From a virus (Duplodnaviria; Caudoviricetes): a DNA stretch of 64,000 nucleotides. Positions 1 to 17,346 of the stretch are shown one piece after another. The stretch covers positions 96,001-160,000 of the IMG/VR virus record IMGVR_UViG_2974782369_000001; one strand, given 5' to 3'. Under the pieces are notes generated by a model. It made no database searches. It was given only the letters and a program-made list of their open reading frames with translations, and was not told where the DNA came from. A program made the position numbers and the translations under genes. The number at the start of each line of letters is the position of its first letter. Within the stretch, counting starts at the first letter, position 1.

Positions 1-348
1 TTCTTCAGCAGAATCACTTTGAGATTTTCCACTTGTTGCCTCCACTAATTCTTGGTATTTTTCGATGACTTCATCGTGTGTTTCATATGCTGTAATAACT
101 TCATCCAGTTTCAGCATAATTGCCTTCCCCTTCAGAAGAGGCATCCATGGCTCAAAAGAAATCTCTGGGGCGGTGAGTTTATGAATCTCACCGTCTGCCT
201 CTGCAGTCATACCACCTTGAATCCACACTGAATATGGATTGACAAGTTGAAAAGCAATGACGGTTTCCTGATCTTCCTTGGTAGTAACCTCATACAAATC
301 AGAGATTACATCTTCACCGCTTCTTGTTCTTACGATTCTTACGCTCAT
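1..348 (-). CDS. Conserved T4-like cyanophage hypothetical protein, possibly Sm-like (3' end runs off the window)
   Basis: Hand translation from ATG at 348: MSVRIVRTRSGEDVISDLYEV...EPWMPL..., open to position 1; not in the ORF track. Confidence 0.7.
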   Translation of the reverse strand, partial: MSVRIVRTRSGEDVISDLYEVTTKEDQETVIAFQLVNPYSVWIQGGMTAEADGEIHKLTAPEISFEPWMPLLKGKAIMLKLDEVITAYETHDEVIEKYQELVEATSGKSQSDSAEE

Positions 349-556
349 AACATCTTCTTTCGATTTCTAAAATTGATTCTCGGATAATATCCTTTAGCAT
401 CTTCTCGGAAGAAGATCCTGTCATTTCTGCGATAGGTCTAATAACCCTCAACAATTCGTCAGTATAGGATGCTGGCACCTCAACTGTCAAGAGATCCGAT
501 TCCCCATCATAATTTGGTTTAGTTAAATTGACATACACATTCATAGCATACTCCAA
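314..556 (-). CDS. Hypothetical protein
   Basis: 80-aa ORF; probable start at ATG 544, preceded by GGAG; overlaps the next gene. Confidence 0.6.
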   Translation of the reverse strand: MEYAMNVYVNLTKPNYDGESDLLTVEVPASYTDELLRVIRPIAEMTGSSSEKMLKDIIRESILEIERRCYERKNRKNKKR

Positions 557-588
557 AATAAAAAGAGACCCCCAGCGGGAGTCTCTTT
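557..588 (-). terminator. Rho-independent terminator
   Basis: On the - strand AAAGAGACTCCCGCTGGGGGTCTCTTTTTATTTT: stem plus U-tract after the 605-796 gene. Confidence 0.75.
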
Positions 589-604
589 AGTTGTATACTA
601 TATA

Positions 605-796
605 TCAATCAAAGTCAGAGATAATCCTCTCACACTTTTCAAGATTCTTTTTGCAGAAGTTACGGACGTAACTTTCAACATCAAGGTCCATATTGTAATG
701 AGCGTGAAGGTGGAGTCCCTGAATTGCAATCAGAAACCCCACAACCAACAGGTTGAATTGAGTAACTGGATGAAGTAATACCTTCAGGTATTTCAT
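605..796 (-). CDS. Small membrane-anchored hypothetical protein
   Basis: 63 aa with one hydrophobic helix and a Cys pair; translationally coupled (TGATG) to the upstream porin-like gene. Confidence 0.7.
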   Translation of the reverse strand: MKYLKVLLHPVTQFNLLVVGFLIAIQGLHLHAHYNMDLDVESYVRNFCKKNLEKCERIISDFD

Positions 797-1152
797 CAGA
801 AGCGATACTTAGTGCCGACTTCAACTTTCCAATCAGTCTTATTGCTGATTTGGATTGCCTCTGCCTTTACTTTAGCAGAAAGTTGCTTAGTCAGTTTGAT
901 GCCAGTACCAACTTCAGCAGAAACTAGACCTTTGCTGTCTCCACCATCGGGGGTCTTAGCACCACCACCAACTTCAACATAAGGGCTGGCAATACCAACC
1001 TTCCAGTCATAACCAAGACGTGCTTGGTTGACTGCTTCTTTATAATTGTCGTCGCTAAATTTGAATTCAGATTTAGTCATGACGTAGGGACCAGCAAGGG
1101 CAGGTGCTGCGATCATGGGCAGTGCCAGAGCAGCAAGAGCGAGTGCTTTCAT
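796..1152 (-). CDS. Small outer-membrane beta-barrel/porin-like protein
   Basis: Signal peptide MKALALAALALPMIAAPALA|GPYV, amphipathic beta-strands, C-terminal KYRF (terminal Phe); start re-assigned to ATG 1152, which follows AAGGA. Confidence 0.75.
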   Translation of the reverse strand: MKALALAALALPMIAAPALAGPYVMTKSEFKFSDDNYKEAVNQARLGYDWKVGIASPYVEVGGGAKTPDGGDSKGLVSAEVGTGIKLTKQLSAKVKAEAIQISNKTDWKVEVGTKYRF

Positions 1153-1246
1153 TTGAAAATTCCTTTGAGTAAATTTACTAGGTGCCCAACTCATGAGCAC
1201 CCATGTAATATAGCACACTTAGCACCAGATTACGGTAAAGGATCGT

Positions 1247-1702
1247 TTAAGGTTTTGTGCTAATCTCATAAACCTTGAGTTTTTGGTGGTCTGGGATGAT
1301 TCTCTTCAATTCAATTGTCAGCAATCCATTATCAAACTTGACATCTCCAACTTCAACATCATCCGATAAGTTGAATCCTCTAGCAAAGGTGCGAGTAGAA
1401 ATACCTCTGTGCATGTATTCTTCTTCACCCTTTGGTTTTCCTGCAATAGATCTAACTAGAAGGACATTACTTTCAGTTGAAACTTCAATCTCTTCCCTTG
1501 CCCAACCAGCAAGTGCTACTTCAATCCTCCACTTGACATTAGATTCTTCGACAATATTGTATGGGGGATATGCTTCATTAACCGATCCCATTCCATAAGA
1601 GTGCAATCTGTAGAATAGATCATCGAATCCTACACTATATCTTTGTGCAGCATCTACCACGGCATTAAGATCTTTCGTGGTGAACTTACGCAGTCCAGTC
1701 AT
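1247..1702 (-). CDS. hsp20: Small heat-shock protein (Hsp20/IbpA family)
   Basis: YPPYNI, EVALAG, YMHRGIS.R.F.R.F.L and NGLLTI alpha-crystallin motifs; strong SD. Confidence 0.95.
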   Translation of the reverse strand: MTGLRKFTTKDLNAVVDAAQRYSVGFDDLFYRLHSYGMGSVNEAYPPYNIVEESNVKWRIEVALAGWAREEIEVSTESNVLLVRSIAGKPKGEEEYMHRGISTRTFARGFNLSDDVEVGDVKFDNGLLTIELKRIIPDHQKLKVYEISTKP

Positions 1703-1710
1703 TTGTTATG

Positions 1711-1768
1711 CTCCTTTAATAAGCGAGTTTGATTGTGTGGTCCCCGAAGGCAACCATACTTATTTAAC
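1711..1768 (-). promoter_or_regulatory. hsp20 leader: late-promoter variant GTTAAATA, a UUCG hairpin and a ROSE-like SD-occluding hairpin
   Basis: - strand: GTTAAATA...TGGTTGCCTTCGGGGACCA...CTCGCTT-ATTA-AAGGAG-10 nt-ATG. Confidence 0.6.
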
Positions 1769-1832
1769 AGTAATACCTAGAAATACATTGTCAAGCAAAC
1801 CGAACACATCTGTAAAGTTTTCCCGACCTACA

Positions 1833-1840
1833 TATAGATA
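1833..1840 (+). promoter_or_regulatory. Putative late promoter (TATAGATA, variant of TATAAATA) for the + strand triplet
   Basis: One mismatch to the T4 gp55 consensus, about 21 nt upstream of ATG 1862. Confidence 0.5.
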
Positions 1841-1861
1841 GGACTCTTAATCGATGGAAAA

Positions 1862-2314
1862 ATGCGTAAACTTCTTCCTATCGTAATGCTATTGATGGCA
1901 ACACCTGCATACGCTGGTGGTCTTGTTACTAAACATGCTTCTTCAGTCCAACTGACTGTTGATGCTGCTCGCTCTACTGCGGTAAGAATCGGTGGTAGTT
2001 ATTCTGCTTCTGGTTCTAACATCACGGCAGGCACGATGGGTGGTGTTTCCACTGGTGCTGGCACATATACTGTCACCACATCTGGACAAGATTGGTCGTT
2101 GAGTGAAACATACAACGCAGCAGATAGTGTTCCTGCATCTGCTGTTAGCACAGGTGATGTTCCTAACTTCGGTAACCTTACCTCTTATGCTGCTGGTTCT
2201 GCTGGCACACTCGCAGGCACGATTGACAGAACTCATGCTATCACGCTGACTGCTGGTGGTGCTGGTTCATCTGCAACAGGACAATTCGTTACTGAGATCA
2301 CTGTTATCGACTAA
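1862..2314 (+). CDS. Secreted Gly/Ser/Thr-rich beta-strand protein (hypothetical)
   Basis: Sec signal MRKLLPIVMLLMATPAYA; first gene of the only + strand operon. Confidence 0.85.
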   Translation: MRKLLPIVMLLMATPAYAGGLVTKHASSVQLTVDAARSTAVRIGGSYSASGSNITAGTMGGVSTGAGTYTVTTSGQDWSLSETYNAADSVPASAVSTGDVPNFGNLTSYAAGSAGTLAGTIDRTHAITLTAGGAGSSATGQFVTEITVID

Positions 2315-2326
2315 TACTATATAACC

Positions 2327-2743
2327 ATGAAGAGATTATTTTTCGTGGCATTACTACTGGGATCACCAGCAATGGCAGTCCCAGTAGTCCCTAACTTCAC
2401 ACAGGGGTCGATGACAAGCCACACAGAGACGACACAAAAAATTACAGAGACCATCAACTCGATGGACTATAACACAGGGTATCAATACTCTGTGACAGGG
2501 AGTGGAATTACAGCATCAGGTTCTTTACAACCAGGAACAGGTGCTAACAATGTAACTATAGATGGCGTGACATCATCATGGACAGGACTAACAAGCAGAC
2601 CAAACTTTACGCAGACAACTCCAGGGGGAGCATTTCAGTTCACAGAATCTTACCAAGGTCCTGGTTTAAGCAATCAAACAATCATTCAAAGAACAACAGA
2701 AGTAACAAGCATAACCGACACTACCTCTATCTTCTCACAGTAG
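2327..2743 (+). CDS. Secreted Thr-rich protein (VPVVPNFTQG cyanophage hypothetical)
   Basis: Sec signal MKRLFFVALLLGSPAMA; Thr/Gly-rich mature region. Confidence 0.85.
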   Translation: MKRLFFVALLLGSPAMAVPVVPNFTQGSMTSHTETTQKITETINSMDYNTGYQYSVTGSGITASGSLQPGTGANNVTIDGVTSSWTGLTSRPNFTQTTPGGAFQFTESYQGPGLSNQTIIQRTTEVTSITDTTSIFSQ

Positions 2744-3423
2744 GTATCAATCTTGCTTTCCCAATTCAAGCATACGCTGAAGTCGGGGGTGTTAGTGCTA
2801 CAGCTGCTCCCGTTGCTAATTCTTCAGGCTCGGTAACCAACCAAGCTATTCAGGTTTTACAAGGACCCTACATTACAAACACCTATGGGAATGGGATTCA
2901 GTGTCAGGGTCCCACACTAAACTTCACACCCTATGTCACTGGTAGTGCTTCTGCTACCAAACCATACGAGCCATATTACTATGATCCTGTCTATGACATG
3001 AGGGACATGGATGACGATGGAGCACCTGACAATCCTGGGTCTGTTTTGTATCGTGTCCCTGTAAGGACTGGACAGAAGGATAACTACAACCTAGGTGTTG
3101 GTTTCTCTGCTACATGGTCTCGTCCTTTGGATAAGAAATTGCAGGATCAATGCAAAGAAGCAGCTGCTGCTAACATCGCACTGATGCAACAGCAAACTGC
3201 TAACAAGAGATTAGATTTTGAGATCGCTAGACTAAAGAATTGTGGCGAGTTGATGAAGCAGGGTATCATGTTCCACCCACGCTCACCTTATTATAAAGTC
3301 TGTGCTGATGTGGTTGTGAATAATCCTCCAGGTCATACTCACCCACACGTACATAAAATTCCTACTCCTGTGTCTCGGAATGCTGAGGACCTTGGTCCCG
3401 CTCTAACAACTGGTAAGGAGTGA
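2578..3423 (+). CDS. Secreted/envelope protein with Cys pairs, a DxDDDG motif and a coiled coil (hypothetical); start uncertain
   Basis: Signal-like segment YLYLLTVGINLAFPIQAYA|EVGG; QCQG, DMDDDGAPD, CKEAA, NCGE, VCAD. Confidence 0.8.
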   Translation: MDRTNKQTKLYADNSRGSISVHRILPRSWFKQSNNHSKNNRSNKHNRHYLYLLTVGINLAFPIQAYAEVGGVSATAAPVANSSGSVTNQAIQVLQGPYITNTYGNGIQCQGPTLNFTPYVTGSASATKPYEPYYYDPVYDMRDMDDDGAPDNPGSVLYRVPVRTGQKDNYNLGVGFSATWSRPLDKKLQDQCKEAAAANIALMQQQTANKRLDFEIARLKNCGELMKQGIMFHPRSPYYKVCADVVVNNPPGHTHPHVHKIPTPVSRNAEDLGPALTTGKE

Positions 3424-3727
3424 GTGCTTCATTCAATGCCTCAAGCACATTCTCTTTGAATGTACGATATGGAATGAACAGTTCATCATCCTCAGTCTTA
3501 TAGTCCTGGTGTGTCTCTTTGAACTTACGATCTACATCATAGGTCAGATTTGTTACGATATCATTGATGATTTCAATAGACTTTGCGGTAAGTCCGTTCC
3601 AAGATGTATTGGGAAACATATCATCCTTGACACGATCTAGCAGTGCTTTCTTGCAATGCCATTGTTGATCAAAGATTTGGGTAAATGCTTCCCAGTCGTG
3701 TTGGGATTTGAAATGGGGGATACTCAT
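3362..3727 (-). CDS. Hypothetical protein
   Basis: 121-aa ORF with AGGT upstream; its 3' end overlaps the convergent + strand gene by 62 nt. Confidence 0.7.
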   Translation of the reverse strand: MSIPHFKSQHDWEAFTQIFDQQWHCKKALLDRVKDDMFPNTSWNGLTAKSIEIINDIVTNLTYDVDRKFKETHQDYKTEDDELFIPYRTFKENVLEALNEALTPYQLLERDQGPQHSETQE

Positions 3728-3865
3728 AGTGATTCTACCTTTGATTTTACAGATTTGGGAGTTGCTCTTAACTCTTTCTCCCTTTTATATCATCATCTAA
3801 GATATTTTCTATTTCCTTAATCAAATCAATTTGGTGTTTATTCTCCATGTCTAAAATAAAATTGT

Positions 3866-3902
3866 GGGAAATTCTATAGGTAATTCCCTTATAGTTTTTT
3901 TT
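3866..3902. terminator. Possible bidirectional terminator hairpin
   Basis: GGGAAATT-ctataggt-AATTCCC flanked by A-rich and T-rich tracts. Confidence 0.35.
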
Positions 3903-3910
3903 ATATTCGG

Positions 3911-4690
3911 TCATTTAGGTTTGAGCGTTTGTCTCAATGCCATTATAGCACGGTTTCGGTCTCTTTGCTCGTTTCTACGCTCGGCAGTGGACAGTACAGT
4001 AACTGACTTCCCCCTGATAGCAGCAATCTTTTTCATAACTTTCTTGACCGTTGGTTTGATAACCTTTAGTAGGATATCTGCCAGCGGTTTTGCCATAAGT
4101 GCTGATGCTGTTGCCACTACAGCAATACTTGAGGTAGTTACAACTGTCCCAGCAGCAGGAAGACCAGCAATTACTTGCTCTGGTAGAGGCACAGGTTCTG
4201 TAATCTGAATACACTGGTTGCCAACTAACTGATAGTCAGTAACTTTCTTTCTAAACCCCTCAATGTATGTGCCTACAGGTTCCTTCGCTGCTTGTGCTGG
4301 TGTGGGGCAGTCTATCTTAGCAGTAGCAGCGGGAGTTTTAGGTATCGGTAGATCAGGTGCTTCGGGAGCTTTGGGTTGCCTTGTATCTACTCCCGAAGGT
4401 TTAGTAGGAACTATCTGGTTAGGTTCAAAATTAATAGGATTATAACTAGGGACGCCAGAATCGCAGTACGTAACCAGACCTCTGTCGTCATCACTTCCGA
4501 GAGTTTTAGATTTGTTATTCGCTTCGTGGGCTTCGACACAACCAGGCACGTCAACGATAGGCACACCAATATTTACCACTACAGGTGCTGCTAGTGGAGT
4601 TGATGTGTAATATTCGTTAGCAGTTACGACCTTTGGAATGTCAATCTCCCTGATGTTAATGTTGGGAGAAGTAATGTTAGGAATCTCCAT
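3911..4690 (-). CDS. Membrane-anchored hypothetical protein (Pro-rich, 4 Cys, C-terminal TM and basic tail)
   Basis: 259 aa; hydrophobic VVTTSSIAVVATASALMA followed by a K/R-rich tail. Confidence 0.85.
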   Translation of the reverse strand: MEIPNITSPNINIREIDIPKVVTANEYYTSTPLAAPVVVNIGVPIVDVPGCVEAHEANNKSKTLGSDDDRGLVTYCDSGVPSYNPINFEPNQIVPTKPSGVDTRQPKAPEAPDLPIPKTPAATAKIDCPTPAQAAKEPVGTYIEGFRKKVTDYQLVGNQCIQITEPVPLPEQVIAGLPAAGTVVTTSSIAVVATASALMAKPLADILLKVIKPTVKKVMKKIAAIRGKSVTVLSTAERRNEQRDRNRAIMALRQTLKPK

Positions 4691-4803
4691 CAGTCATCGT
4701 CTTTGAATAAATTCGCAATCGCAGTGAATACCGAGTGGAATGCAACATAAAGAAAAAACTTTCCTTCAGCATCCCTGTCTCTTTTCCTTCTTGTAGTAGT
4801 CAT
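4690..4803 (-). CDS. 37-aa single-TM microprotein
   Basis: Hand translation MTTTRRKRDRDAEGKFFLYVAFHSVFTAIANLFKDDD; TGATG coupling to the next gene. Confidence 0.6.
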   Translation of the reverse strand: MTTTRRKRDRDAEGKFFLYVAFHSVFTAIANLFKDDD

Positions 4804-4805
4804 AA

Positions 4806-5414
4806 TTAACAATCATTGAATACAGAACCAACTTGGCTACCAATATTAGATCCGACTCTACCACCTAGAAGAGTTACCCAACCAGCAGCCAACCATCCTA
4901 TATAGGGGATGTTGACCACTGCAGGCACGAGAGCACCAGCAGCAATGCTAGTCCCTGCTAGGGCACCTTGACTCCGTGCGCCAGCGTCCGCCCGTATGCA
5001 CTCTTCGCTTTTCGCACCCGTCTTTCCCATGCCGTCAGCGGCACCTCCTAGGTTTCTAGCACCATCCATAGTATATTGATCGACGCGATACTCTCTGCGA
5101 CTTTCAATACCACCTCCACCAAACAATCCACCTTTCTTCTGATCTAACTTTAGTTGTCTCTCAGAATTTAGAATAGCAGGATCGTTTGCTTTGTATTCAA
5201 TCTTATATCCATCCCTAGTTGCTTCCACCTTATAGGAAGAGTAGTCACCATTAGGAAAATTAATTACAGGATACTGCGGTCTGTTTACCAGATGACCGAG
5301 CACACCAATATGAGCAACACCTACAACACCAAGTAATGCCAATCCAGCAATCTTTATTGGCGATCTTTTCTTTGTTGGTGTTTCAGTTGATGTTTCGGTC
5401 TTCTTAGTAGTCAT
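4806..5414 (-). CDS. Membrane protein with N-terminal TM and C-terminal glycine-zipper hairpin
   Basis: IAGLALLGVVGVAHIGVLG; GALAGTSIAAG...GWLAAGWVTLLGGRVGSNIGSQVG. Confidence 0.85.
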   Translation of the reverse strand: MTTKKTETSTETPTKKRSPIKIAGLALLGVVGVAHIGVLGHLVNRPQYPVINFPNGDYSSYKVEATRDGYKIEYKANDPAILNSERQLKLDQKKGGLFGGGGIESRREYRVDQYTMDGARNLGGAADGMGKTGAKSEECIRADAGARSQGALAGTSIAAGALVPAVVNIPYIGWLAAGWVTLLGGRVGSNIGSQVGSVFNDC

Positions 5415-5416
5415 GG

Positions 5417-5695
5417 TTAGAAGGGGAGAGCAGGTCCAGTGACAGCAGGAGCACCTCCACCGACTCCAGGAGCGGCAGGAAGGGCACCACCAGTAACCTT
5501 AGGCATCTTGGGCATAGCAGATTCCAGCATCCCTGGGAGGGCACCAGCGACTGCTTCTGTTGCTGCCTTGGTGGCAGCAGTCTTTGCCTGCTCGATCAAA
5601 GCATCTTTATTAAGAAGCACATATGCACTACCGCCAATGAGAGCAGCAGATGTAAGACCAGACAGAAGAGCGATAACGTTAATTAGTTTTTGCAT
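5417..5695 (-). CDS. Type II membrane protein (N-terminal TM, helical Ala-rich then Pro/Gly tail)
   Basis: 92 aa, TM at residues ~5-28. Confidence 0.8.
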   Translation of the reverse strand: MQKLINVIALLSGLTSAALIGGSAYVLLNKDALIEQAKTAATKAATEAVAGALPGMLESAMPKMPKVTGGALPAAPGVGGGAPAVTGPALPF

Positions 5696-5699
5696 GGTT

Positions 5700-6176
5700 T
5701 TAGATAGTAGGCATTACAGGTGGCTCACCGTCCTTCTTAGGTGCAGTGGCAATTTGAATCGGGGCTTGCTCAATACGAATCGTTTGCGCTGGAGCCGTCT
5801 GCGCCGCAGCTTGGATGAGTTTCTCAAGATCTGCCTTGGAGACACCGCCGCCAGCAACACCCTTGAATGTGCCATCGCCATTCTTCTTTGCTGTCTGGAC
5901 GCCAAAGGTAGCGAGCACCCCTGTAAAAACAGACGCGATAAAAGTGGGATCGAGTTTCTGCTCTGGGATGCCGAGTGCGGGCGGCAACTTAATGTAAGCA
6001 AGGGTAAGGATGCCACCAGACCAGACGAGGATACCAAGACGCACGAAAGTGCTAATGATGGCAAGGTGTTCCTCGCTATCACCAGCAGCTTCCTTGAGCT
6101 TAGCAAAAGGTCCCTTCTTCTTTTCGGCCTGTTTTACCTCTTCCTTTTCAAGAGATTCTTTTACTTCTTCGGACAT
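5700..6176 (-). CDS. Two-TM membrane protein (holin-like topology)
   Basis: Two hydrophobic segments (IISTFVRLGILVWSGGILTLAYI; TFIASVFTGVLATFGV) between charged termini; late promoter upstream. Confidence 0.8.
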   Translation of the reverse strand: MSEEVKESLEKEEVKQAEKKKGPFAKLKEAAGDSEEHLAIISTFVRLGILVWSGGILTLAYIKLPPALGIPEQKLDPTFIASVFTGVLATFGVQTAKKNGDGTFKGVAGGGVSKADLEKLIQAAAQTAPAQTIRIEQAPIQIATAPKKDGEPPVMPTI

Positions 6177-6199
6177 TGAATGAGCTGACGAGGCTCATC

Positions 6200-6207
6200 T
6201 ATTTATG
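6200..6207 (-). promoter_or_regulatory. Late promoter (CATAAATA)
   Basis: Overlaps the regA stop codon, about 23 nt upstream of ATG 6176. Confidence 0.7.
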
Positions 6208-6625
6208 ATTCAGCAACTTGTTTTTTCTTACCGATATTATACTTAGATTCTAAAGACCATTCACCCTTATCTTTATAAGAGATAACTTTAATTTGACTTA
6301 GTGGTGCAGCATCTACAATCTCATCAGACTTTGCAACTTCAATCAAACCCCAATCGGATAAGAGTTGAATGATGCGATTGCGTCGTTGTAGATCGTTAGT
6401 AGAAATATTTGCTTTCTTACCATCAAGAGCAAACAACTCTTTGAAATGCACGATGTAATATTGACCCTTCTTATGAAGAATGTGGCACGACTGATAGAGT
6501 TTCTTTTCCTTTCGTGAGGCGACACCAATACGAGTCAGCGTCTCACGCACCTTAAGAAAATCATCAGGCTCCTTGAGCATCACTTGAATCATATTATCTT
6601 TAGACCATTGTAGATCTTCACTCAT
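6203..6625 (-). CDS. regA: Translational repressor RegA
   Basis: PDDFLKVRETLTRIGVAS, LYQSCHILHK, YIVHFKELF; follows gp62. Confidence 0.97.
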   Translation of the reverse strand: MSEDLQWSKDNMIQVMLKEPDDFLKVRETLTRIGVASRKEKKLYQSCHILHKKGQYYIVHFKELFALDGKKANISTNDLQRRNRIIQLLSDWGLIEVAKSDEIVDAAPLSQIKVISYKDKGEWSLESKYNIGKKKQVAES

Positions 6626-7026
6626 TTTTTCTTTCCCCCTTTATTCAGTTTATTTTTAATGACATCTAATTGATCAGGAGTCAGAATGTTAAGAGCCTGT
6701 CGTGCTTTTTCATTACTATAACCATAGTATTGCTTGACAACTTCCAAATCATTCATCTTCTGTTTTTTGTCCCAAGGCGAAAACCTTTTACGAGACCTGA
6801 CGATATTTATAAAAAAATCATATTGAAGTTTCTTATCAAGATGAGAATACATATTCATCTCGTTGGCATACATCACGGTATCCATGTGATGTGACATGCA
6901 CTTATTCACAATATAAGGGGGGTAATTCTTTTCCCAACTAGGATCATCAGATTCCATCACACTCTTTTTGGTATAGTTAATGGAGTTGAGGTAATCCTTC
7001 AGGGGATACCTGTCATCAATTGCCAT
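6622..7026 (-). CDS. g62: Clamp loader small subunit gp62
   Basis: YLNSIN, YPPYIVNK, LQYDF, VKQYYGYS.EKA. Confidence 0.93.
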   Translation of the reverse strand: MAIDDRYPLKDYLNSINYTKKSVMESDDPSWEKNYPPYIVNKCMSHHMDTVMYANEMNMYSHLDKKLQYDFFINIVRSRKRFSPWDKKQKMNDLEVVKQYYGYSNEKARQALNILTPDQLDVIKNKLNKGGKKK

Positions 7027-7849
7027 AGTTTAAAAGCAGTAATTCCTTTCGTTGTTTCTGGTCGCTCATGTACGATCCCACGGATCGCATAGTATAGGTG
7101 AGGTCGAATTCGCCTGCTTGCCACCCTTCAAACCTTTCCTTGACAAGTTGGTCCGAATTATAAGATACAAGTTGATCACCGACGAAGCGGTCACAATCAA
7201 CAGCAAAGGTATCATGATCGAAGCACTTGTGCATACTACCTCGCCTTCCGTATAGGTTAGATTTAATGTCGTAGGGGGGATCAAGGTAGGTGAAGCACTT
7301 TTTGTCATCAGTAAGGAGTTGCTCATAGGATAAGTTGGTAATCTTCCAATCTTTGATTAACATGGAATAGTGAGGAAGATTCTCTATCCCTCGCATTGAG
7401 AAGTTTGAATCGCTCGCCTGGGCAGAAAAGGATGAGGACTCAGAGAGACCAGAAAAAGAGCACTTGTTAATAACGTAAAAACTAACGGCACGATGAAAGG
7501 ATTCGGTTTTTCGGGCGTCATGAGACAGATACTCCTTTGCTTCTAGAAATAGTTTCTTTGCACTGACAGAATCACAGTGACGATTCTTGAGTTGCACCAA
7601 CTCGTCACGAAGTTGTCTGCCTTCATCTTGCAAAACCCTCCAAAAATTATATAGAGGTTCGTAAAGGTCATTGACCCAGATATCCAAATGAGGATATGTC
7701 TGAGTCATCCAGATAGCGAAAGATCCACCACCTAGAAATGCCTCACGATATTCAGTGTAGTTATTCATGTCAGGCAGAAACTGTGCCATCTTCTTGATGG
7801 CACGAGACTTTCCACCAGGATAACGAAGAGGGGTCTTTAGGACGGTCAT
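7016..7849 (-). CDS. dam: DNA adenine methyltransferase (Dam/D12 class)
   Basis: LRYPGGKSR, EAFLGGGS SAM-binding motif, YLDPPY. Confidence 0.93.
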   Translation of the reverse strand: MTVLKTPLRYPGGKSRAIKKMAQFLPDMNNYTEYREAFLGGGSFAIWMTQTYPHLDIWVNDLYEPLYNFWRVLQDEGRQLRDELVQLKNRHCDSVSAKKLFLEAKEYLSHDARKTESFHRAVSFYVINKCSFSGLSESSSFSAQASDSNFSMRGIENLPHYSMLIKDWKITNLSYEQLLTDDKKCFTYLDPPYDIKSNLYGRRGSMHKCFDHDTFAVDCDRFVGDQLVSYNSDQLVKERFEGWQAGEFDLTYTMRSVGSYMSDQKQRKELLLLNYGN

Positions 7850-8136
7850 CAGGTAATAATTTTCTTAGAGGGTGCAGATACTTTACCAAAGGTGTCGCAG
7901 TATTGTTGCTCCAGATTAGGAAGCAGTTTAGTCATGTAGAGCACATGCTGTTTGAGAATCTTCACTTCTTTCTCATCAGGATCACCGAGGGGACAGAAAG
8001 GAGCGAATCCAAGTTGATCATTGCCTTGGGGTGCAGCAATCAATGCATCACAAACAAGGAGATACTCATCAGTCTCTTCAATGAGATCAACAATCAATTG
8101 CTCTCCATTAGAGAGACGCACATTTTTTACAGTCAT
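7849..8136 (-). CDS. Conserved T4-like hypothetical protein (Sm-like)
   Basis: VRLSNGEQL...LGFAPF...YCDTFG; coupled to both neighbours. Confidence 0.75.
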   Translation of the reverse strand: MTVKNVRLSNGEQLIVDLIEETDEYLLVCDALIAAPQGNDQLGFAPFCPLGDPDEKEVKILKQHVLYMTKLLPNLEQQYCDTFGKVSAPSKKIIT

Positions 8137-8282
8137 TTTAGTTTTTCAATTACGGAGTTTACAGATTCGGACATCTGGCGGTAACCAGTGCCAACATAAA
8201 TTTGTCCTGCCACAACGGCAAAGGTGGCAATACCCCAGAAGATATAATACCACTTGGATTTTACTTGGTGCTTCTTTCCCAT
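8133..8282 (-). CDS. 49-aa single-TM microprotein
   Basis: MGKKHQVKSKWYYIFWGIATFAVVAGQIYVG...; GGAG SD before ATG 8282. Confidence 0.65.
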   Translation of the reverse strand: MGKKHQVKSKWYYIFWGIATFAVVAGQIYVGTGYRQMSESVNSVIEKLK

Positions 8283-8283
8283 T

Positions 8284-9033
8284 CTACTCCATCTCCTCGG
8301 TTTTGACAAACTCTTTGAGGATATCAACGAATGTTTCTCCAGGATCCTGCTCTCGCGCTTCAGCAATTTCTAATAGCATTCCATGCAGTCTTTCACCCTC
8401 CTTCCCAACAAATTCAATTTGAGTATCTTCCCACTCCTGAATTACAGGATTGTATCTTCCATCATGAATAACAATGGGATCAACTTGTTTGGATTTGTTT
8501 GTTACATTTCCTCCATAAAATTTGACTGCGGCTTGAATATTCTCTTTTTGAGTTGTATATTCTAAATTATCAACGCAATTATTAGTGGCATCATGATCTA
8601 TATGATTCACCACAACATTACCAGATATCCAAGATTTATAACTATCAGGGATGCGGGGTTGTCCAATCATGTCTGCAGTAATGACTTGATTCCATTCCGA
8701 TGCTAATCTATCTGGGGCATATTCATCCATTGGTCGATGTGCTTGCATCACCAATCTATGCACATCCTCAGTCCTTTTACAAGTTGTTTTGCTTCTACTA
8801 TTATAGACCCAATCACCATCAAAAAAATCTAGGGGATAATAAATATCCACCCTAGCATAAACATTATCCCGCGATCTATTAAAGCATTTAATTTTTCTCG
8901 AATATGAAGGATCTGCGATATTGCCCCCAGCAGTTCTTCGTATATGAGAAACAACATTACCAAGATTGGATACGGAATACCAATCATGGATTTTGCCATC
9001 GATTACAAGATGTTTCCAAATTTCGGTTGTCAT
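8284..9033 (-). mobile_element. Free-standing HNH homing endonuclease (NUMOD4-like N-terminus)
   Basis: EIWK...YSVSNLGNV; VHRLVM..H; VVNHIDHDATNNCVDNLEY..QKEN. Confidence 0.85.
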
Positions 9034-9052
9034 TTGAATTCACACTCCTTCA
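9030..9052. repeat. Direct repeat, copy 2 of the gp44 3' end
   Basis: tcatttgaattcacactccttca: 19/19 core and 22/23 overall identity to 9615-9637. Confidence 0.9.
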
Positions 9053-9618
9053 GTATAGTATCTTGGTGCTGATTCATACTCTTTTCCATCTCTATGCAAA
9101 ATATTATTTTGATGGTCAACCCATTCAAGATTTTCAATGGAGTTATCAGACCTGTTTTTATTTTTATGGTTTACTTCAGTAAATGTTTCGGGGTCAGGAT
9201 TTTTTAACCATGCCTCTGCCATTAAACGATGCACTAGTTTACCATTGTAAACTGCATATCCTTCTTCATTTAAATAAAAGTTAGAAACAGTCTCCTGCGT
9301 TTTGACATTTTTAATTCTTCCATCATAGTAGTAAATATAATTACCAACTTTTCGCATGTGAGGTCTGCATGAAGAAGAGGGCACTTTAACTTTACCATTT
9401 TCCCACAACCACATCAACCATTTTTTAATTGGTTTTCTTGCTTTAGTAGGAAGATTGCCATTCTCAAAGTCTTTCCTTAACCGATGTTTAATTTTTAAGT
9501 ATGACCTTTCAGTGTAATCATATCTAGGTGGAATTCCAACCAAAAATTTTTCAAAAGAAACTACTTCCTTTCCACTAATAACTTTCTGATAGATATCAAT
9601 TTCAAACTGTTTACTCAT
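9040..9618 (-). mobile_element. Free-standing HNH homing endonuclease
   Basis: VHRLMAEAWL.NP...EVNHKNKNRSDNSIENLEWV...NNILH; AT-rich. Confidence 0.88.
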
Positions 9619-9637: not shown

Positions 9638-10556
9638 TAATTTGAGTAAGTGCTGCTAAAAGATTGATCTCCTGGTCAGCAACGAATGCAGTCTTGTATT
9701 GATATTCAGCAATAATCAAAACTGCTGCTGCAATACTAGGACCTTCCATATTTTCTGCAAGACCATCATACAACTTACGAAGAATTGCGTTGGGGTCAGC
9801 ATCAAGATTCTGCGTGACCCACTTCTTCACATCATTGAATTTCTTATTCTTCAGAGCAGCAATAAGATCCTTGGTGTTTGCATCACCTAGCGTCGCCAGA
9901 ATGCCAGTGTCGATAGCGCCCGTGGAGGAGTATCGCTGCAATTCGTTGAGGGTGCGTCGGAAGTCTGGGAAGTATTTTTGGACGACCTCAGCAACAACTC
10001 TAGGTTCGAAGGAGACCTCTTCCCGTTTGAGGATATCTCGGCAACGATTGAAGAAAGCGCCTGCCAACTCTTGCTTAGTTTGTCCACGAACATTGAAGTC
10101 AACTACCGTTGTCCTACTATGTAGGGGGTCGATAATCTTGTTTTTGAAATTACAAGTGAATATGAACCGACAGTTTTTTTGAAACTCTTCGATACTGGCA
10201 CGAAGGAGTAGTTGGACATCTGGGGTTGTGTTGTCTGCCTCATCAATGATAAGGACTTTGTGACGAGCAGAAGCAGTGAGAGACACAGTAGAAGCAAAGG
10301 ATTTTGCCTGATTGCGTACAGTGTCCAAGAAACGTCCCTCATCAGACCCGTTGATAACATAGTAGTCTGCTCCCAATTCATTGCAGAGTGCTTTTGCGAT
10401 GGTGGTCTTGCCAACACCAGCAGTGCCAGAGAGGAGCAGATTGGGGATCTCACCCTGATCTACAAAACTCTGAAAGGTGGTCTTCACAGATTCGGGGAGA
10501 ATGCAGTCCTCAATAGTTTGAGGACGATACTTCTCTACCCAAAGGAAATCATTCAT
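9615..10556 (-). CDS. g44: Clamp loader large subunit gp44
   Basis: LWVEKYRP, Walker A GTAGVGKT, IIDEAD, PDFRR. Confidence 0.97.
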   Translation of the reverse strand: MNDFLWVEKYRPQTIEDCILPESVKTTFQSFVDQGEIPNLLLSGTAGVGKTTIAKALCNELGADYYVINGSDEGRFLDTVRNQAKSFASTVSLTASARHKVLIIDEADNTTPDVQLLLRASIEEFQKNCRFIFTCNFKNKIIDPLHSRTTVVDFNVRGQTKQELAGAFFNRCRDILKREEVSFEPRVVAEVVQKYFPDFRRTLNELQRYSSTGAIDTGILATLGDANTKDLIAALKNKKFNDVKKWVTQNLDADPNAILRKLYDGLAENMEGPSIAAAVLIIAEYQYKTAFVADQEINLLAALTQIMMECEFK

Positions 10557-10888
10557 TCTAAAGGTCTTTGAAATTCACGACTAATAATATTAGATGCATG
10601 AAGCATCTGTTTCATGTATTCTACACCATCCTGAGGTGTAGTGTGGTCTCCACAAGTAAAGACATCACAAACTGCCATACCCAACTCTGGCCAAGTGTGA
10701 ATGCTGATATGACTTTCAGCGAGCATTGCCACACAAGTTACACCTTGAGGATCAAACTTGTGTGAGTTGAGTGCCAGCAGCGTAGACTGACACTTCACAC
10801 TGGCGTGATAGATTACATCCCTAATGTATTGCTCATCATCCAGAAGAGCCATACTGCACCCCTTAAGGGTGAAAAGGATGTGTCTCAT
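10553..10888 (-). CDS. speD: S-adenosylmethionine decarboxylase proenzyme
   Basis: F.PQGVT...LAESHISIHTWPE...DVFTCG. Confidence 0.93.
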   Translation of the reverse strand: MRHILFTLKGCSMALLDDEQYIRDVIYHASVKCQSTLLALNSHKFDPQGVTCVAMLAESHISIHTWPELGMAVCDVFTCGDHTTPQDGVEYMKQMLHASNIISREFQRPLE

Positions 10889-13499: not shown

Positions 13500-13639
13500 T
13501 TAAATTTGGTTGTTACGCTTACTACTGTAGCACCAGGATTGCGAGCAAGAGCAACTTTTCTTGCATCTTGATAGTCCGTAGCAATTACTTCTTCAGTAAA
13601 TACGGTGCCAGCCTTGAATAGTTTAACTTCACATTTCAT
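13496..13639 (-). CDS. 47-aa conserved-type cyanophage hypothetical protein
   Basis: Hand translation MKCEVKLFKAGTVFTEEVIATDYQDARKVALARNPGATVVSVTTKFK; ATGA overlaps at both ends. Confidence 0.75.
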   Translation of the reverse strand: MKCEVKLFKAGTVFTEEVIATDYQDARKVALARNPGATVVSVTTKFK

Positions 13640-15711
13640 GCAATTTGCTCAATGAATGCATTGAGGATAGTTTTGTTTGTCATTTTGGACCCCATGTGCT
13701 TTTTAAATGCACGGGTCAATTCTGCCTTAGTGGCAACTTCTTTCTTCTGCTTGACTTCTAGATCTTCAGTGCCATTTCCAATATAGTTATTGGGCATAAA
13801 GAACTGTTTGTTGAATCCAGTCTCTCCGTCAAGGGCAACGAATCGCTCCTTTGTCCATTGCTTATTGTATTTGTCCTGCATTTCAAACGGGACATACTCA
13901 TTCAACATACGATTCAAGTCAGACTTGGAGCAGAGACGAATACCGATCCAGTTGTAGTCAGTAATCTCTTTGTAGAAAGAAACAATCTCAGAAGTAGTTT
14001 GATAAGGACTACTAGAAATTTTACGGGAGTATCCAGTCTCAGGGTCACGAAGAATAAAGACTTTATTGCGATGATGGCAAAGGTAATCGCAACGAACATC
14101 ACCGTGACGATAATGATCTTCGGGATAGGTGCCAACAACCCAACTCATAGGATTTGCTTCACCATCTGTCAAAGCAACCACATTAACTTTCTGCACATTC
14201 TCAACACGCTTCATCTCTTTGACTGCCTGACGCATACACATAGTTGCTTCTGCGAGAGGAGTGCCGCCGAGAGAATACATGGGATTGGGTTTTACATTGT
14301 ATGCATTCTGACCCCATGCCTGCGCCCAGATATAACGCATCTGCTTATCAAGGGTTTTAGCATTCATCTGAGATGAGAAGAATTCTAGTAGACGAAAATC
14401 ATCAGAGATGTGCAGAGTTTTGTCTTCTCCGCCACGGACAACATCACTTCCATAACCACTCTGGAAAGCATAGACACGAAATGCGATGCCAACCTTACGG
14501 CAAAACCAGATCAGATTATAGGTTTGCTTGAGGGTATCCATAAGCACATTCGCCATAGATCCAGACCAGTCAAGAAGCATCACCAATCCATGATTCTTAC
14601 CATCAGGGACAACTGCAACCTTCTTGAAGACATCTTCATTGTAACGATAGGTGTGCAGTTTGTTAGTATCAAGCACACCAGTCTTGGACATAGAAGTGCG
14701 AGCATACTGATCAGCAGACTTCTTCATCTCAAACTGTTTGACCAGATAGTTTACAGATTTCTGGGCAGACTTCTTATATTCTTCACACTTATCAAAAGTA
14801 AACTGAAGACCATTGCTATCATACTCGGTGAAGTGCTCCTCCAGAGAATAATAAATTGTCTTCCAAGTAACCAGATACTCATCTAGTTTAATCTTAGGAA
14901 GATCAAGATACACCCACTCCTTTGCATTATCATCAACCAAAGTCTCAAGTGCTTCGCGCAATGCTTCTTCGGTTACAGATTGCGTTTCGTCAAAGGTTTC
15001 TCCACCAAGACCATAGGAAGGAGTGTTGAGATCGGCAGGGTCATCTCCGATCGGATCTTCGTCTGTATCACCCATATCTTGAGTGGCATCACTCCCCTCT
15101 GGGGTGACTTCTTCACTCTGCTGCTCACCAGGACCATCCTGAGTTTGTGGTGCAGGGAGATCCATCTCTTTCTCTTTCTGCTTCTCTTCAGCAAATCCGT
15201 AGATCTCTTTGGCGAGAGCAATCACCTCTTCAAAGGTATTGGTGTTTGCTGCACGAGTGACAAAATCCTTTTCATCATCGGCAAAGTTTACACCAGGATT
15301 GCCCTTGAAGTAAAGATTGATACGATCGATAAGAGGCAGAGTATCAACATTACACTCTTTAACACCGAAGAAATCTTTCTCCCACAACTCACGATAACCT
15401 TGAAAGAAGGACTTACGGAGACCAGGATAGGTGCGCTTCATCATCTTCTCGATACGAGCATCCTCCAAGACATTCACAAAGTCCTTCGGAGCACCCTCAT
15501 AATCAACGTTGGGGGTATAGAGAGCATGACCCACCTCATGACCCACCAGAAGGTCATACACGGTCGCTGAGGCAGTCTTCCAGATAGGAAGGATCAGCAC
15601 ACGGTTATTGACATCAAAACAAGCGGTGGTGATCTTACGGTGCTCTACCTTGAGATTCTCAGTAGCGAGCAGTTTGGCAAGAGTGCCTTTCACTTCGGTG
15701 TTGACGATCAT
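13636..15711 (-). CDS. CobT-like protein: N-terminal HExxH metallopeptidase-like domain, acidic linker, C-terminal vWA domain
   Basis: GHEVGHALYT, NVLEDARIE, MIDAS DWSGSM, GGTPL, LTDGE; start re-assigned to ATG 15711 (AGAGGA SD). Confidence 0.88.
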   Translation of the reverse strand: MIVNTEVKGTLAKLLATENLKVEHRKITTACFDVNNRVLILPIWKTASATVYDLLVGHEVGHALYTPNVDYEGAPKDFVNVLEDARIEKMMKRTYPGLRKSFFQGYRELWEKDFFGVKECNVDTLPLIDRINLYFKGNPGVNFADDEKDFVTRAANTNTFEEVIALAKEIYGFAEEKQKEKEMDLPAPQTQDGPGEQQSEEVTPEGSDATQDMGDTDEDPIGDDPADLNTPSYGLGGETFDETQSVTEEALREALETLVDDNAKEWVYLDLPKIKLDEYLVTWKTIYYSLEEHFTEYDSNGLQFTFDKCEEYKKSAQKSVNYLVKQFEMKKSADQYARTSMSKTGVLDTNKLHTYRYNEDVFKKVAVVPDGKNHGLVMLLDWSGSMANVLMDTLKQTYNLIWFCRKVGIAFRVYAFQSGYGSDVVRGGEDKTLHISDDFRLLEFFSSQMNAKTLDKQMRYIWAQAWGQNAYNVKPNPMYSLGGTPLAEATMCMRQAVKEMKRVENVQKVNVVALTDGEANPMSWVVGTYPEDHYRHGDVRCDYLCHHRNKVFILRDPETGYSRKISSSPYQTTSEIVSFYKEITDYNWIGIRLCSKSDLNRMLNEYVPFEMQDKYNKQWTKERFVALDGETGFNKQFFMPNNYIGNGTEDLEVKQKKEVATKAELTRAFKKHMGSKMTNKTILNAFIEQIA

Positions 15712-15732
15712 GTCCTCTTTGCGTATGGACCT

Positions 15733-15776
15733 ATTATAGGTCATCTTCCCCTCCCAGGTCAATGAGGTAGACAGTT
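15733..15776 (-). promoter_or_regulatory. Early sigma70 promoter with AACTGTCTAC box
   Basis: AACTGTCTAC-ctca-TTGACC-N18-TATAAT. Confidence 0.7.
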
Positions 15777-17346
15777 ATTCTTCTGGCACATTAGCATAGA
15801 TACCATCTTTCAAAAATTGATAATGACTCGGACACTCTCTAGCAAACTCATGTAGTTTTGCTTTCATTTGATTCCATTGATAATCAATTTTACCAACTAT
15901 AGATTCTGCGTTGATGTTATTATAAAACTCAATTTCTTTAAGCATCGATGGAGTGATTCGATCGTATCCCAATCCAATGGCAACAAAATTCATACCATCA
16001 TAATACTCTTCTGGATTATCTTTCAATACAGACAATCCCATAAAACGAGCACCATCACATGCCATACCCCTATGATTTAGAGGAATCTTTGCAGTATCTT
16101 TCCAGTATGGAGTGTCTCTTCTCTGACTAAAGACATAGTGTGCTGAAACAAAATCTGCAAATTCACTAAAATATTTAAACACTGCAGTATTATAAATGTC
16201 CCGATCATATTGAGTGATATACTCTCTTCCCAAGATTCTCACAAGTTTCAATGCAAACTCATGAATCGTTAGCAGTCCATTACCTTCCAAAGGTTCCATG
16301 AATCCTGCAGACAACCCAATAGCAATACAGTTTTTAACCCAGGTCCGTTTATGGATACCGACTCGGAATGACAAATCTCTAAATTCAAGATCATCAATTT
16401 CCTTACCTAGAGAAACTAGATGGTCTTTAAATTCTTGTAATGCATCTTCTTTACTAACATAATTATCGGAATAAACATATCCCATACCAATTCTAGTCCA
16501 GGTAGGAGTATTCCAAACCCACCCATTAGAGAGTGCTACACAATCAGTATATGGTTTCATCTCAGTTTCTTTATCTGAGTATGGGACTCTTGCTGCCCAA
16601 GCACGATTATTTGGAAGTTGATCATTAAATGAAACAAACTCTTCACCGAGAGCATCGCCAATCAATAGACTCTTGAATCCTGTACAATCAATATACACAT
16701 CAGACGTAATGAATCTACCAGCATCATCAAGATAAATTCTCTCAATACCCTCTTCACCAACATCAACTGAAGTGACCGTTGCTGGAATATGATTTACGCC
16801 CCGAGGAATACAGTATTCATCACGCAACCAGTTTGCAAACTTAACAGCATCAACGTGGAAAGCACTATCCTGCTTTACATCAAAGTTTCCAAATTTTCCC
16901 TCTTCATTATAATCCAATTTTCCAGCATCAATGAGTGCCATCTGTGGATAATATGATTTGGCAAAATCTTGGACTGGAGTATTGGGATACAATGCTTTTT
17001 TCATTCTCCAATCATTCAATCCACTATATGAATCGGGGAAAAAGTGGGGTGATCCGAAAGGATAATGAAATCCAGTCTTGTCATTTTCATTACTAAATCC
17101 AGTGAATTTTACACTCAACTTATAAGTTGCATCACACGCTGCCATAAAATCACTATCCTGAATACCAACAACATGCATCCAAGATCTAAGAAGTTGGAGT
17201 GTGCTTTCACCAACACCAATTCTAGGCACATCAGGACTTTCAACAACAGTTATTTGTTTGTATGGGTGAGTTGCAACGATCGTTGCTGCAGTCATCCACC
17301 CAGCTGTGCCACCACCAACAATTACAATTTTTTCAGTCTTCATCAT
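15775..17346 (-). CDS. Flavin-dependent tryptophan halogenase family protein (PrnA-like)
   Basis: VGGGTAGW, IGVGEST, ATYKL, IDCTGF, GWVWNTP, AGFMEPLE. Confidence 0.9.
   Translation of the reverse strand: MMKTEKIVIVGGGTAGWMTAATIVATHPYKQITVVESPDVPRIGVGESTLQLLRSWMHVVGIQDSDFMAACDATYKLSVKFTGFSNENDKTGFHYPFGSPHFFPDSYSGLNDWRMKKALYPNTPVQDFAKSYYPQMALIDAGKLDYNEEGKFGNFDVKQDSAFHVDAVKFANWLRDEYCIPRGVNHIPATVTSVDVGEEGIERIYLDDAGRFITSDVYIDCTGFKSLLIGDALGEEFVSFNDQLPNNRAWAARVPYSDKETEMKPYTDCVALSNGWVWNTPTWTRIGMGYVYSDNYVSKEDALQEFKDHLVSLGKEIDDLEFRDLSFRVGIHKRTWVKNCIAIGLSAGFMEPLEGNGLLTIHEFALKLVRILGREYITQYDRDIYNTAVFKYFSEFADFVSAHYVFSQRRDTPYWKDTAKIPLNHRGMACDGARFMGLSVLKDNPEEYYDGMNFVAIGLGYDRITPSMLKEIEFYNNINAESIVGKIDYQWNQMKAKLHEFARECPSHYQFLKDGIYANVPEE

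Follow-up and report, generated by a model that had tools for sequence, protein, structure and literature searches.

What is the function of a block of small genes at positions 1833–6207 of a 64,000-nucleotide stretch of viral DNA, which an original prediction made from the sequence took for an undescribed envelope or lysis apparatus? The whole stretch (hereafter the window) corresponds to bases 96001–160000 of a 174,231-base virus record, IMGVR_UViG_2974782369_000001, rated complete. Our analysis indicates that the block is a real, conserved, mobile, and phage-specific envelope cassette. It consists of a four-gene core (m259, g3, g2, and g1), the usual companions m158 and m92, and the more loosely attached m202 and a 37-amino-acid (aa) open reading frame (ORF). 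We propose, with a probability of about 0.45, that it is a late envelope-breaching lysis module, acting on the membranes and outer layers when marine picocyanophages lyse their hosts.

The source of the window is a T4-like Synechococcus myovirus. The window encodes T4-type replication and virion genes together with the late sigma factor gp55. The best DNA match of positions 1200–6700 was Cyanophage S-RIM4 (93.3% identity over 96% of the query), and nearly all of the 151 phage records matched by this segment were Synechococcus phages. The eight ORFs of the original prediction were all present at their positions. Pfam and PHROGs searches of the proteins of the block, reported at E ≤ 0.1 and 0.01, gave only DUF6322, DUF6450, PHROGs of unknown function, and a "plasmid stability" label for m92, in agreement with the predicted lack of an enzyme domain.

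Gene linkage was scored in 164 IMG/VR loci, comprising 80 around m259 relatives, 80 around relatives of the P-SSM7 homologue, and 4 around relatives of the S-TIM5 homologue. Together with six pieces of named records, 170 loci were searched with profiles made from the window proteins; the linkage counts refer to the 164 IMG/VR loci only, with near-identical loci retained. Since the loci were selected via m259, every linkage count is conditional on the presence of m259. Where at least 2 kb of sequence was available, g3-g2-g1 lay in this order opposite m259 in 39/39 loci of the Synechococcus type, 51/53 of the Prochlorococcus type, and 2/2 of the TIM5 type. Of the 94 metagenomic loci that were long enough, 92 kept the core together irrespective of what flanked it. 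The two convergent halves therefore belong together, as had been predicted, since their order is kept while the flanks vary.

The other members were linked to different degrees. With 4 kb of room, m158 was found on the same strand within 4 kb upstream of m259 in 47/52 Synechococcus-type, 44/52 Prochlorococcus-type, and 0/3 TIM5-type loci. The corresponding figures were 48/52, 44/52, and 0/3 for m92, and 39/52, 15/52, and 0/3 for m202; the profile of the 37-aa ORF matched 59/170 loci. In P-HM1, m202 lies about 50 kb away from the rest. The prediction that eight genes form one system is thus only partly supported: the four-gene core is linked, and the prediction has to be relaxed for m202, the DUF6450 gene (m158), and the 37-aa ORF. 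The position between regA and hsp20, which had been part of the description, was incidental. The regA gene was within 4 kb upstream of m259 in 11/52, 33/52, and 0/3 loci of the three types, and hsp20 was beyond g1 in 5/22, 24/43, and 2/2 loci with 3 kb of downstream room. In the window, hsp20 (1247–1702, − strand; PF00011 at 3e-13), a frequent neighbor of the cassette, diverges from g1. Contigs of relatives from RNA libraries diverge from the window exactly at position 6206, which places the upstream edge of the cassette there.

The open frames of m259 and g3, taken from stop to stop, overlap tail to tail in most loci. The window differs in that two variable inserts sit between them: m121 (3362–3727, − strand), which encodes a soluble-looking 121-aa protein of phrog_10289, and m48 (3768–3914, − strand), a 48-aa ORF with no PHROG match. 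Neither has a hydrophobic segment, and the profile search found m121 in 10/170 loci and m48 in 1/170. Both are outside the conserved cassette. The halves do converge as predicted, but the convergence zone is not envelope-directed throughout.

The cassette is not confined to one genomic setting or one phage type. S-RSM4 carries it in the same arrangement, with psbA, hli, and virion genes as neighbors. The non-T4 phage S-TIM5 has the core and hsp20 side by side, and a DUF6450 gene very similar to m158 stands alone there, 142 kb from the core. This gene (locus L183, 1429–1854), situated near a psbA-like gene, is near-identical to m158 across the two membrane segments, which suggests a recent exchange of a single gene between phage lineages. 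The 79.6-kb record S-H68 was rejected as a siphovirus carrier; it is a partial Kyanoviridae record. In whole-record searches, four families (m259 and g3 by profile, DUF6450, and DUF6322) had matches in both S-TIM5 and S-TIP37 and no candidate in S-PM2, and this all-or-none pattern supports a shared function.

Homologues were also present in T7-like cyanopodoviruses. A tblastn search with the C-terminal domain of g3 matched 455 phage records, including T7-like cyanopodoviruses at 29%–36% identity, and m259 matched 395 phage records. In S-TIP37 and S-SBP1, profiles located cassette homologues that share a strand and lie in the interval from the tail-fibre genes to the small terminase. They comprised an m259-like ORF (E 1.5e-8 in S-TIP37 and 5.2e-7 in S-SBP1), a DUF6450 gene (1.2e-15 in both), a g2 homologue (1.2e-9 and 3.2e-11), and a g3 homologue that overlaps g2 out of frame (5.8e-12 and 3.8e-11). 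A small protein encoded in the same slot has a membrane segment and a coiled coil predicted by eye. In the public records, the m259-like ORF is unannotated or mis-framed in S-TIP37 (L171, 4959–5499) and S-SBP1 (L198, 2858–3328); in S-TIP37 it is unannotated for the part in its own frame, and the DUF6450 gene is unannotated as well. Both records annotate g3 only from an internal ATG. The core genes are co-inherited in three phage types that are unrelated to one another.

Homologues of g3 were abundant in public sequence: among 8000 candidate protein clusters from genomes and metagenomes scored for g3, 7914 were related. When one genome for each of 185,579 prokaryote species was scanned with the g3 alignment, 9 loci were recovered, all on contigs of metagenome-assembled genomes or single cells, with 51%–76% identity to g3. 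Two of these contigs were about 190 kb, the size of a whole cyanomyovirus. The 9 loci are read as phage DNA in bins, and no cellular homologue was evident in the scan.

The exported half of the cassette is encoded on the + strand. Beyond position 6600, a greedy gene call picked four other + strand ORFs, all without a PHROG match at E ≤ 1e-10; g1-g2-g3 is therefore the only supported + strand gene set in the window, consistent with the prediction of a single + strand operon in 64 kb. The first gene, g1 (1862–2314), encodes an exported 150-aa protein that is rich in Thr, Ser, and Gly and of beta type (phrog_564 at 1e-56); its homologue is labeled "OMP1" in the S-RIM8 record. The second, g2 (2327–2743), encodes an exported 138-aa protein with matches to phrog_650 (1.5e-69) and to Pfam DUF6322 (PF19847, 5.5e-43), the latter at 146 bits against a curated cut-off of 30.6. 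A weak cross-match of g1 to phrog_650 was observed, and its nearest ESM Atlas clusters were all DUF6322 (score 0.96). By these matches g1 is a distant paralogue of g2.

Hydrophobicity was taken as the Kyte-Doolittle mean over 19 residues with a cut-off of 1.5, and the calls of signals and topology are sequence-based readings. The N-termini of g1 and g2 have a basic start and a hydrophobic core (mean 1.85 and 2.05, respectively), followed by an A-x-A site. The third gene, g3 (2578–3423), encodes 281 aa from its sole canonical start and matched phrog_848 at 3e-144. Its signal-like hydrophobic segment ends at about 2778, leaving a mature part at 2779–3420, and the alignment showed invariant Cys and His residues within the conserved C-terminal domain. 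Sec-type signals had been predicted for all three genes. Signal-like N-termini were found in g1 and g2, whereas in g3 the segment lies further inside the ORF. An AlphaFold2 model of g3 was rich in beta structure over its N-terminal half and placed a helix at residues 119–160, with a mean predicted local distance difference test (pLDDT) score of 57.0. A search of the g3 profile against PDB sequences gave nothing below E 0.31 and was uninformative for remote homology.

The ORF of g3 overlaps g2. It has one canonical start, the ATG at 2578, which lies 166 nt inside g2 in a different frame, and its hydrophobic segment opens where g2 ends, at the stop codon. The same coincidence of the g2 stop codon with the start of the signal-like segment was seen in relatives, in the 70 rows inspected out of 103 distinct contexts. 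The only canonical start preceding the whole signal was found inside g2, 69–74 codons before GGVSAT, a conserved motif at the beginning of the mature protein, in the Synechococcus and TIM5 types, and about 119–135 codons before it in the Prochlorococcus type. A few rows had an extra start in the last 16 codons before GGVSAT, too near to leave a signal peptide. The exceptions to a start within g2 were rows cut by a contig end and two loci, L021 and L168, where g3 has its own short signal peptide and lacks the overlapped stretch. The out-of-frame overlap was kept in Synechococcus-, Prochlorococcus-, TIM5-, and T7-type phages, and the g3 signals were conserved in form, not in sequence. A frameshift or a non-canonical start was disfavored, since no classical slippery site was found by eye and every open frame had an ATG at its head. 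The upstream ATG is the favored start on this comparison, and public annotation would be corrected accordingly, with g3 beginning within g2. A fusion of g2 and g3 in P-SSM7, suggested by a 446-aa annotation, was rejected; g2 is a separate 154-aa ORF there, and the long ORF reflects the same out-of-frame overlap as elsewhere.

The membrane-protein half is encoded on the − strand. The anchor gene of the core, m259 (3911–4690; 259 aa, phrog_570 at 4.9e-107), showed four invariant Cys residues in the alignment; the protein is rich in Pro in its middle part and has a hydrophobic helix near the C-terminus, followed by a strongly basic tail. The hydrophobic segment covers approximately residues 183–200 and is followed by a tail of net charge +13; the last 60 residues carry +13 and the first 170 carry −6. 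The AlphaFold2 model (mean pLDDT 56.8) placed a helix at residues 186–225 and was of low confidence at residues 1–100. Upstream of m259 lie the 37-aa ORF (4690–4803), which is annotated in S-RIM4, and m202 (4806–5414; 202 aa, phrog_605 at 1.5e-87), which has an N-terminal membrane segment and a Gly/Ala-rich hydrophobic C-terminal stretch. The 92-aa product of m92 (5417–5695; phrog_568 at 1.1e-35) has a hydrophobic N-terminal anchor and a short Ala/Pro-rich tail, and its "plasmid stability" label is carried by the PHROG and by the annotation of relatives. The outermost gene, m158 (5700–6176; 158 aa), matched Pfam DUF6450 (PF20048) at 1.7e-34 and 117.9 bits, with a cut-off of 25. It has two hydrophobic segments, at approximately residues 38–62 and 77–93, and its homologue in Syn9 has 91 aa. 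Membrane segments had been predicted for five − strand proteins and were found in m158, m92, m202, and m259. The single segment of the 37-aa ORF was borderline, below the 1.5 cut-off in the 19-residue window and about 1.7 when summed by hand over 18 residues. The cassette thus appears to encode three products with Sec-type signals and four or five with membrane segments.

The arrangement of promoter-like motifs pointed to late expression. As predicted, a T4 late-type motif was found ahead of each half: TATAGATA at 1833–1840 on the + strand, 29 nt before the g1 ATG, and CATAAATA at 6200–6207 on the − strand, overlapping the regA stop codon and 31 nt before the m158 ATG. In many relatives, late-type motifs precede g1 and m158 at a fixed spacing. 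Among distinct upstream regions of relatives, NATAAATA or TATARATA was present 29–36 nt before the g1 ATG in 29/77, and the motif was present 24–33 nt before m158 in 18/61. The corresponding figures were 0/107 for m259, 0/42 for regA, and 1/62 for m202. Several upstream regions of the Prochlorococcus type had a TATATA-like element instead. Within the window, NATAAATA also lay 21–49 nt before the starts of gp8, a 1803-aa fibre-like protein, DUF7243, sheath, portal, DUF7216, and scaffold genes. The number of ATAAATA occurrences in the window was not above chance (17 vs. 13.0 ± 4.2 expected; 21 of 100 shuffles reached 17), so the weight lies in the position of the motif before genes. Sigma-70-type promoters and intrinsic terminators in 1200–6700 were likewise not above chance (9 and 2 vs. 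10.7 and 4.3 expected). Between CATAAATA and the m158 start, a 7-bp inverted repeat was observed at 6180–6198; it was absent from the few upstream regions of relatives inspected.

Published timing in S-SBP1 was consistent with this arrangement. According to the available part of Huang et al. 2020 (PMC7885011), 23 genes of S-SBP1 are late, 15 of them in the right arm, and genes 34, 35, 37, 38, 39, and thyX are middle; these counts would place genes 40–54, including the cassette genes 47–50, in the late class. Contigs from four metatranscriptome runs of four studies covered 30, 30, 28, and 28 of the 30 bins of 1200–6700 at ≥90% likeness. These contigs carry no strand, time, or level, and carry-over of DNA is possible.

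The remaining genome offered little else to which lysis could be assigned. The T4 e-type family PF00959 (Phage_lysozyme) had 0 matches in the 174,231-base genome, with 3 of 14 known genomes positive as a control. No holin, spanin, or free endolysin was recognized among 240 ORFs scanned across the genome, and the 226 ORFs outside the cassette had no holin or spanin match in PHROGs. The only "lysis" labels among these 226 were on two large tail-module proteins (729 and 831 aa) that matched "endolysin" PHROGs. They are encoded in the phage's own genome outside the window (L179, 8050–10239 and 10242–12737), the first with a hydrolase-like stretch at about residues 380–545, and they resemble wall-degrading proteins carried by the virion more than a free endolysin. 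In a survey of 677 phage genomes, 20 of the 91 spanin-less phages infect Prochlorococcus or Synechococcus, and the substitute proposed there for a spanin is a C-terminally anchored inner-membrane protein with an outer-membrane protein (Kongari 2018, PMC6139136, available part). The combination of m259 with g1–g3 has this proposed architecture, which favors a late envelope-breaching role.

A possible mechanism can be outlined. The products of g1, g2, and g3 would be exported via Sec to the periplasm or the outer membrane before lysis. The C-terminal helix of m259 would anchor this protein in the cytoplasmic membrane with the basic tail inside, and the Cys-bearing, Pro-rich N-terminal part of m259 would point outward to the exported proteins. 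The two-segment DUF6450 protein m158 could act as a holin-like membrane trigger, with m92 and m202 as accessory membrane components. At the end of infection, the assembly would destabilize the cytoplasmic and outer membranes and replace spanins. The assignment of single proteins to these steps is inferred. Spanin-like work is done by disruptin-type peptides in other phages.

Several observations weigh against the lysis reading. S-PM2 is a lytic T4-like cyanophage, and a search of its whole record gave, within the sensitivity of the search, no candidate for the m259, g3, DUF6450, or DUF6322 families; lysis by this phage type therefore does not strictly require the cassette. Neither the cassette nor its immediate surroundings encode a peptidoglycan hydrolase (no hydrolase family in 1–9000), and m158, the DUF6450 protein, had no match to a named holin family in either Pfam or PHROGs. 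The signals of g1, g2, and g3 are not followed by a lipobox Cys (the residues after A-x-A are G, V, and E) and have no Cys close to any cleavage site, so none of the three is a spanin-type lipoprotein. The 170-residue N-terminal part of m259 has no export signal, and its outward topology is presumed from the bias in charge and from the four invariant Cys residues. Next to the membrane segment, the helix of m259 was not more amphipathic than shuffled sequences (291 of 2000 reached its moment). The AlphaFold2 models of g3 and m259 were too low in confidence for fold assignment, and Foldseek with the g3 model gave no match (best E 0.51, template modeling score 0.15). Two members, m202 and the DUF6450 gene, can lie far from the core, as in P-HM1 and S-TIM5. 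As to timing, the late class of the S-SBP1 cassette is deduced from gene counts and not from a figure, and the − strand genes could be read through from the regA operon.

Other functions for such a cassette were considered. Three exported products and several membrane-bound ones would also suit proteins that coat or modify the host envelope and thereby keep further phages, or newly released progeny, from binding to infected cells and debris. The cassette is accessory in that S-PM2 lacks it, and it moves as a unit between phage types with common hosts, which would fit such a role. The known exclusion analogues are T4 Imm and Sp and T5 Llp, and exclusion is an early function in known cases, for which the late-type motifs and the late-operon position in T7-like phages are unsuited. 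Masking of a specific receptor is also hard to reconcile with near-universal conservation over myo- and podoviruses that use different receptors. We consider surface masking or exclusion improbable, and no specific support was obtained for superinfection exclusion or for a surface filament or pore, the two variants offered along with lysis in the original prediction. Host-envelope support, with products that keep transport or envelope integrity during infection as pstS or Phage_OMP would, appears improbable to the same degree. The cassette lies near an exported Phage_OMP gene (PF24653 at 7.2e-40) and hsp20 in the window and neighbors pstS, hli, and psbA in other phages, but no transporter, porin, or binding-protein family was matched in Pfam or PHROGs. 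The late motif and the position among late genes in T7-like phages also contrast with the middle timing of auxiliary metabolic genes in P-HM2 (PMC5082946, available part).

The same export signals could have another destination, because signal peptides and anchors in cyanobacteria may also direct proteins to the thylakoid membrane and lumen, where the cassette could remodel photosynthetic membranes. Parts of it do lie beside psbA, hli, or ferredoxin genes in S-RSM4, P-HM1, S-H68, and S-TIM5. The neighborhood varies among phages, however, no photosynthesis-related family was matched in Pfam or PHROGs, and thylakoid targeting lacks positive evidence, which makes this role very unlikely. The least probable of the alternatives is that the products belong to the virion or its assembly and that their hydrophobic ends do not serve as export signals. 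Structural genes do adjoin the cassette in S-RSM4, S-TIM5, and T7-like phages; yet in S-TIM5 it is the neighbors, not the cassette genes, that are labeled virion proteins, and cleavable signals conserved in form and not in sequence fit export. In the available part of Sullivan 2010, the virion proteins among the 25 strict core genes are T4-GC 15 and 190 only, a set that excludes these near-core clusters. Late envelope-breaching lysis is a reasonable interpretation and the best of these readings, and the function itself is put forward as a proposal from sequence.

At the level of single genes, the members of the cassette were not undescribed, contrary to what had been predicted, since they are already T4-GC clusters of Sullivan 2010 and include two Pfam DUFs. 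In the supplement of that paper (PMC3037559, available part), m158 corresponds to T4-GC 218, m92 to 414, m202 to 219, m259 to 234, g3 to 235, g2 to 236, and g1 to 237, and sequences and cluster numbers of P-HM1 also match the window proteins. The Syn9 genes gp161 (m158), gp162 (m92), gp163 (m202), gp164 (m259), gp165 (g3), gp166 (g2), and gp167 (g1) match the window genes in order, with likeness judged by eye and by shared PHROGs, and the Syn10 annotation reads "similar to gp161-gp167" in the same order. T4-GC 218, 219, 234, 235, and 237 have coordinates in 15 of the 16 cyanophage columns in that part of the supplement; according to the paper, the nearly core genes are missing only from S-PM2. 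An empty entry for T4-GC236, as in P-SSM7, reflects a g2 gene that had not been called. The clusters are listed there singly as hypothetical proteins, with no function, unit, or link to podoviruses or TIM5-like phages, and lysis, lysozyme, and holin are never mentioned in the available part.

No paper was found in the literature that treats the cassette genes as a unit or assigns them a function. The names DUF6450, DUF6322, PF19847, PF20048, and PF24653 were not found in any of the papers searched, and PMC7238727 held nothing on the cassette genes. Literature searches on cyanophage holin, endolysin, spanin, and lysis genes found no lysis system of a marine picocyanophage.

Other genes of the window were recorded alongside the cassette. 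Beyond hsp20, the Phage_OMP gene (796–1218, − strand) encodes an exported beta barrel like cyanophage outer-membrane proteins, and it adjoins a gene for a 63-aa protein with one hydrophobic segment (605–796, − strand; phrog_2587). These two genes travel together in some loci, unlinked to the cassette. Two adjacent HNH endonuclease genes (8284–9030 and 9040–9615, − strand; phrog_59) sit inside the clamp-loader operon, between a small ORF after dam (7849–8133) and gp44, a site where S-RIM4 has no insert. Among the replication genes, the − strand also encodes an S-adenosylmethionine decarboxylase (10553–10885; phrog_3125), a 707-aa peptidase (13636–15759; phrog_459), and a tryptophan halogenase (15775–17343; phrog_2928).

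Much of the photosynthesis in the ocean is carried out by Prochlorococcus and Synechococcus, whose carbon and nutrients go back into the water when cyanophages lyse them. A phage-specific, late, envelope-directed gene set provides a concrete knock-out target for the question of spanin-less lysis. A bolder version of the lysis reading would be a new trans-envelope lysis machine, made of m259, g1/g2/g3, and a DUF6450 trigger, unrelated in sequence to holins, spanins, and disruptins and spreading among myo-, podo-, and TIM5-type phages. We regard this version as rather unlikely; if true, it would explain how "spanin-less" cyanophages release their progeny.

Compared with known systems, the cassette shows partial likenesses. 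The overlap of g2 and g3 is a same-strand, out-of-frame overlap as in overprinting of the phiX174 type, but the overlapped stretch of g3 precedes the signal peptide, and L021 and L168 do without the overlap. Like class II holins, m158 is small with two membrane segments, a likeness in architecture only, and unlike holin genes it is not encoded beside an endolysin. The two-component spanins Rz and Rz1 of lambda resemble the cassette in pairing an inner-membrane-anchored protein with exported partners, in their adjacent and overlapping genes, and in late expression. They differ in that m259 is anchored C-terminally, not N-terminally, and its exported partners lack a lipobox. An i-spanin has an N-terminal membrane anchor and a helical periplasmic domain; m92, with its N-terminal anchor and short Ala/Pro-rich tail, may be of this kind, whereas the core member m259 has its anchor at the C-terminus. 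The T7 lysis genes 17.5 (holin) and 18.5/18.7 (spanins) lie between the tail fibre and the small terminase. The cassette has more genes than this set and no lipoprotein, its exported beta-rich proteins have no T7 counterpart, and no sequence relationship between the two sets was found; nevertheless, the cassette homologues of S-TIP37 and S-SBP1 fill the same slot, on the late strand.

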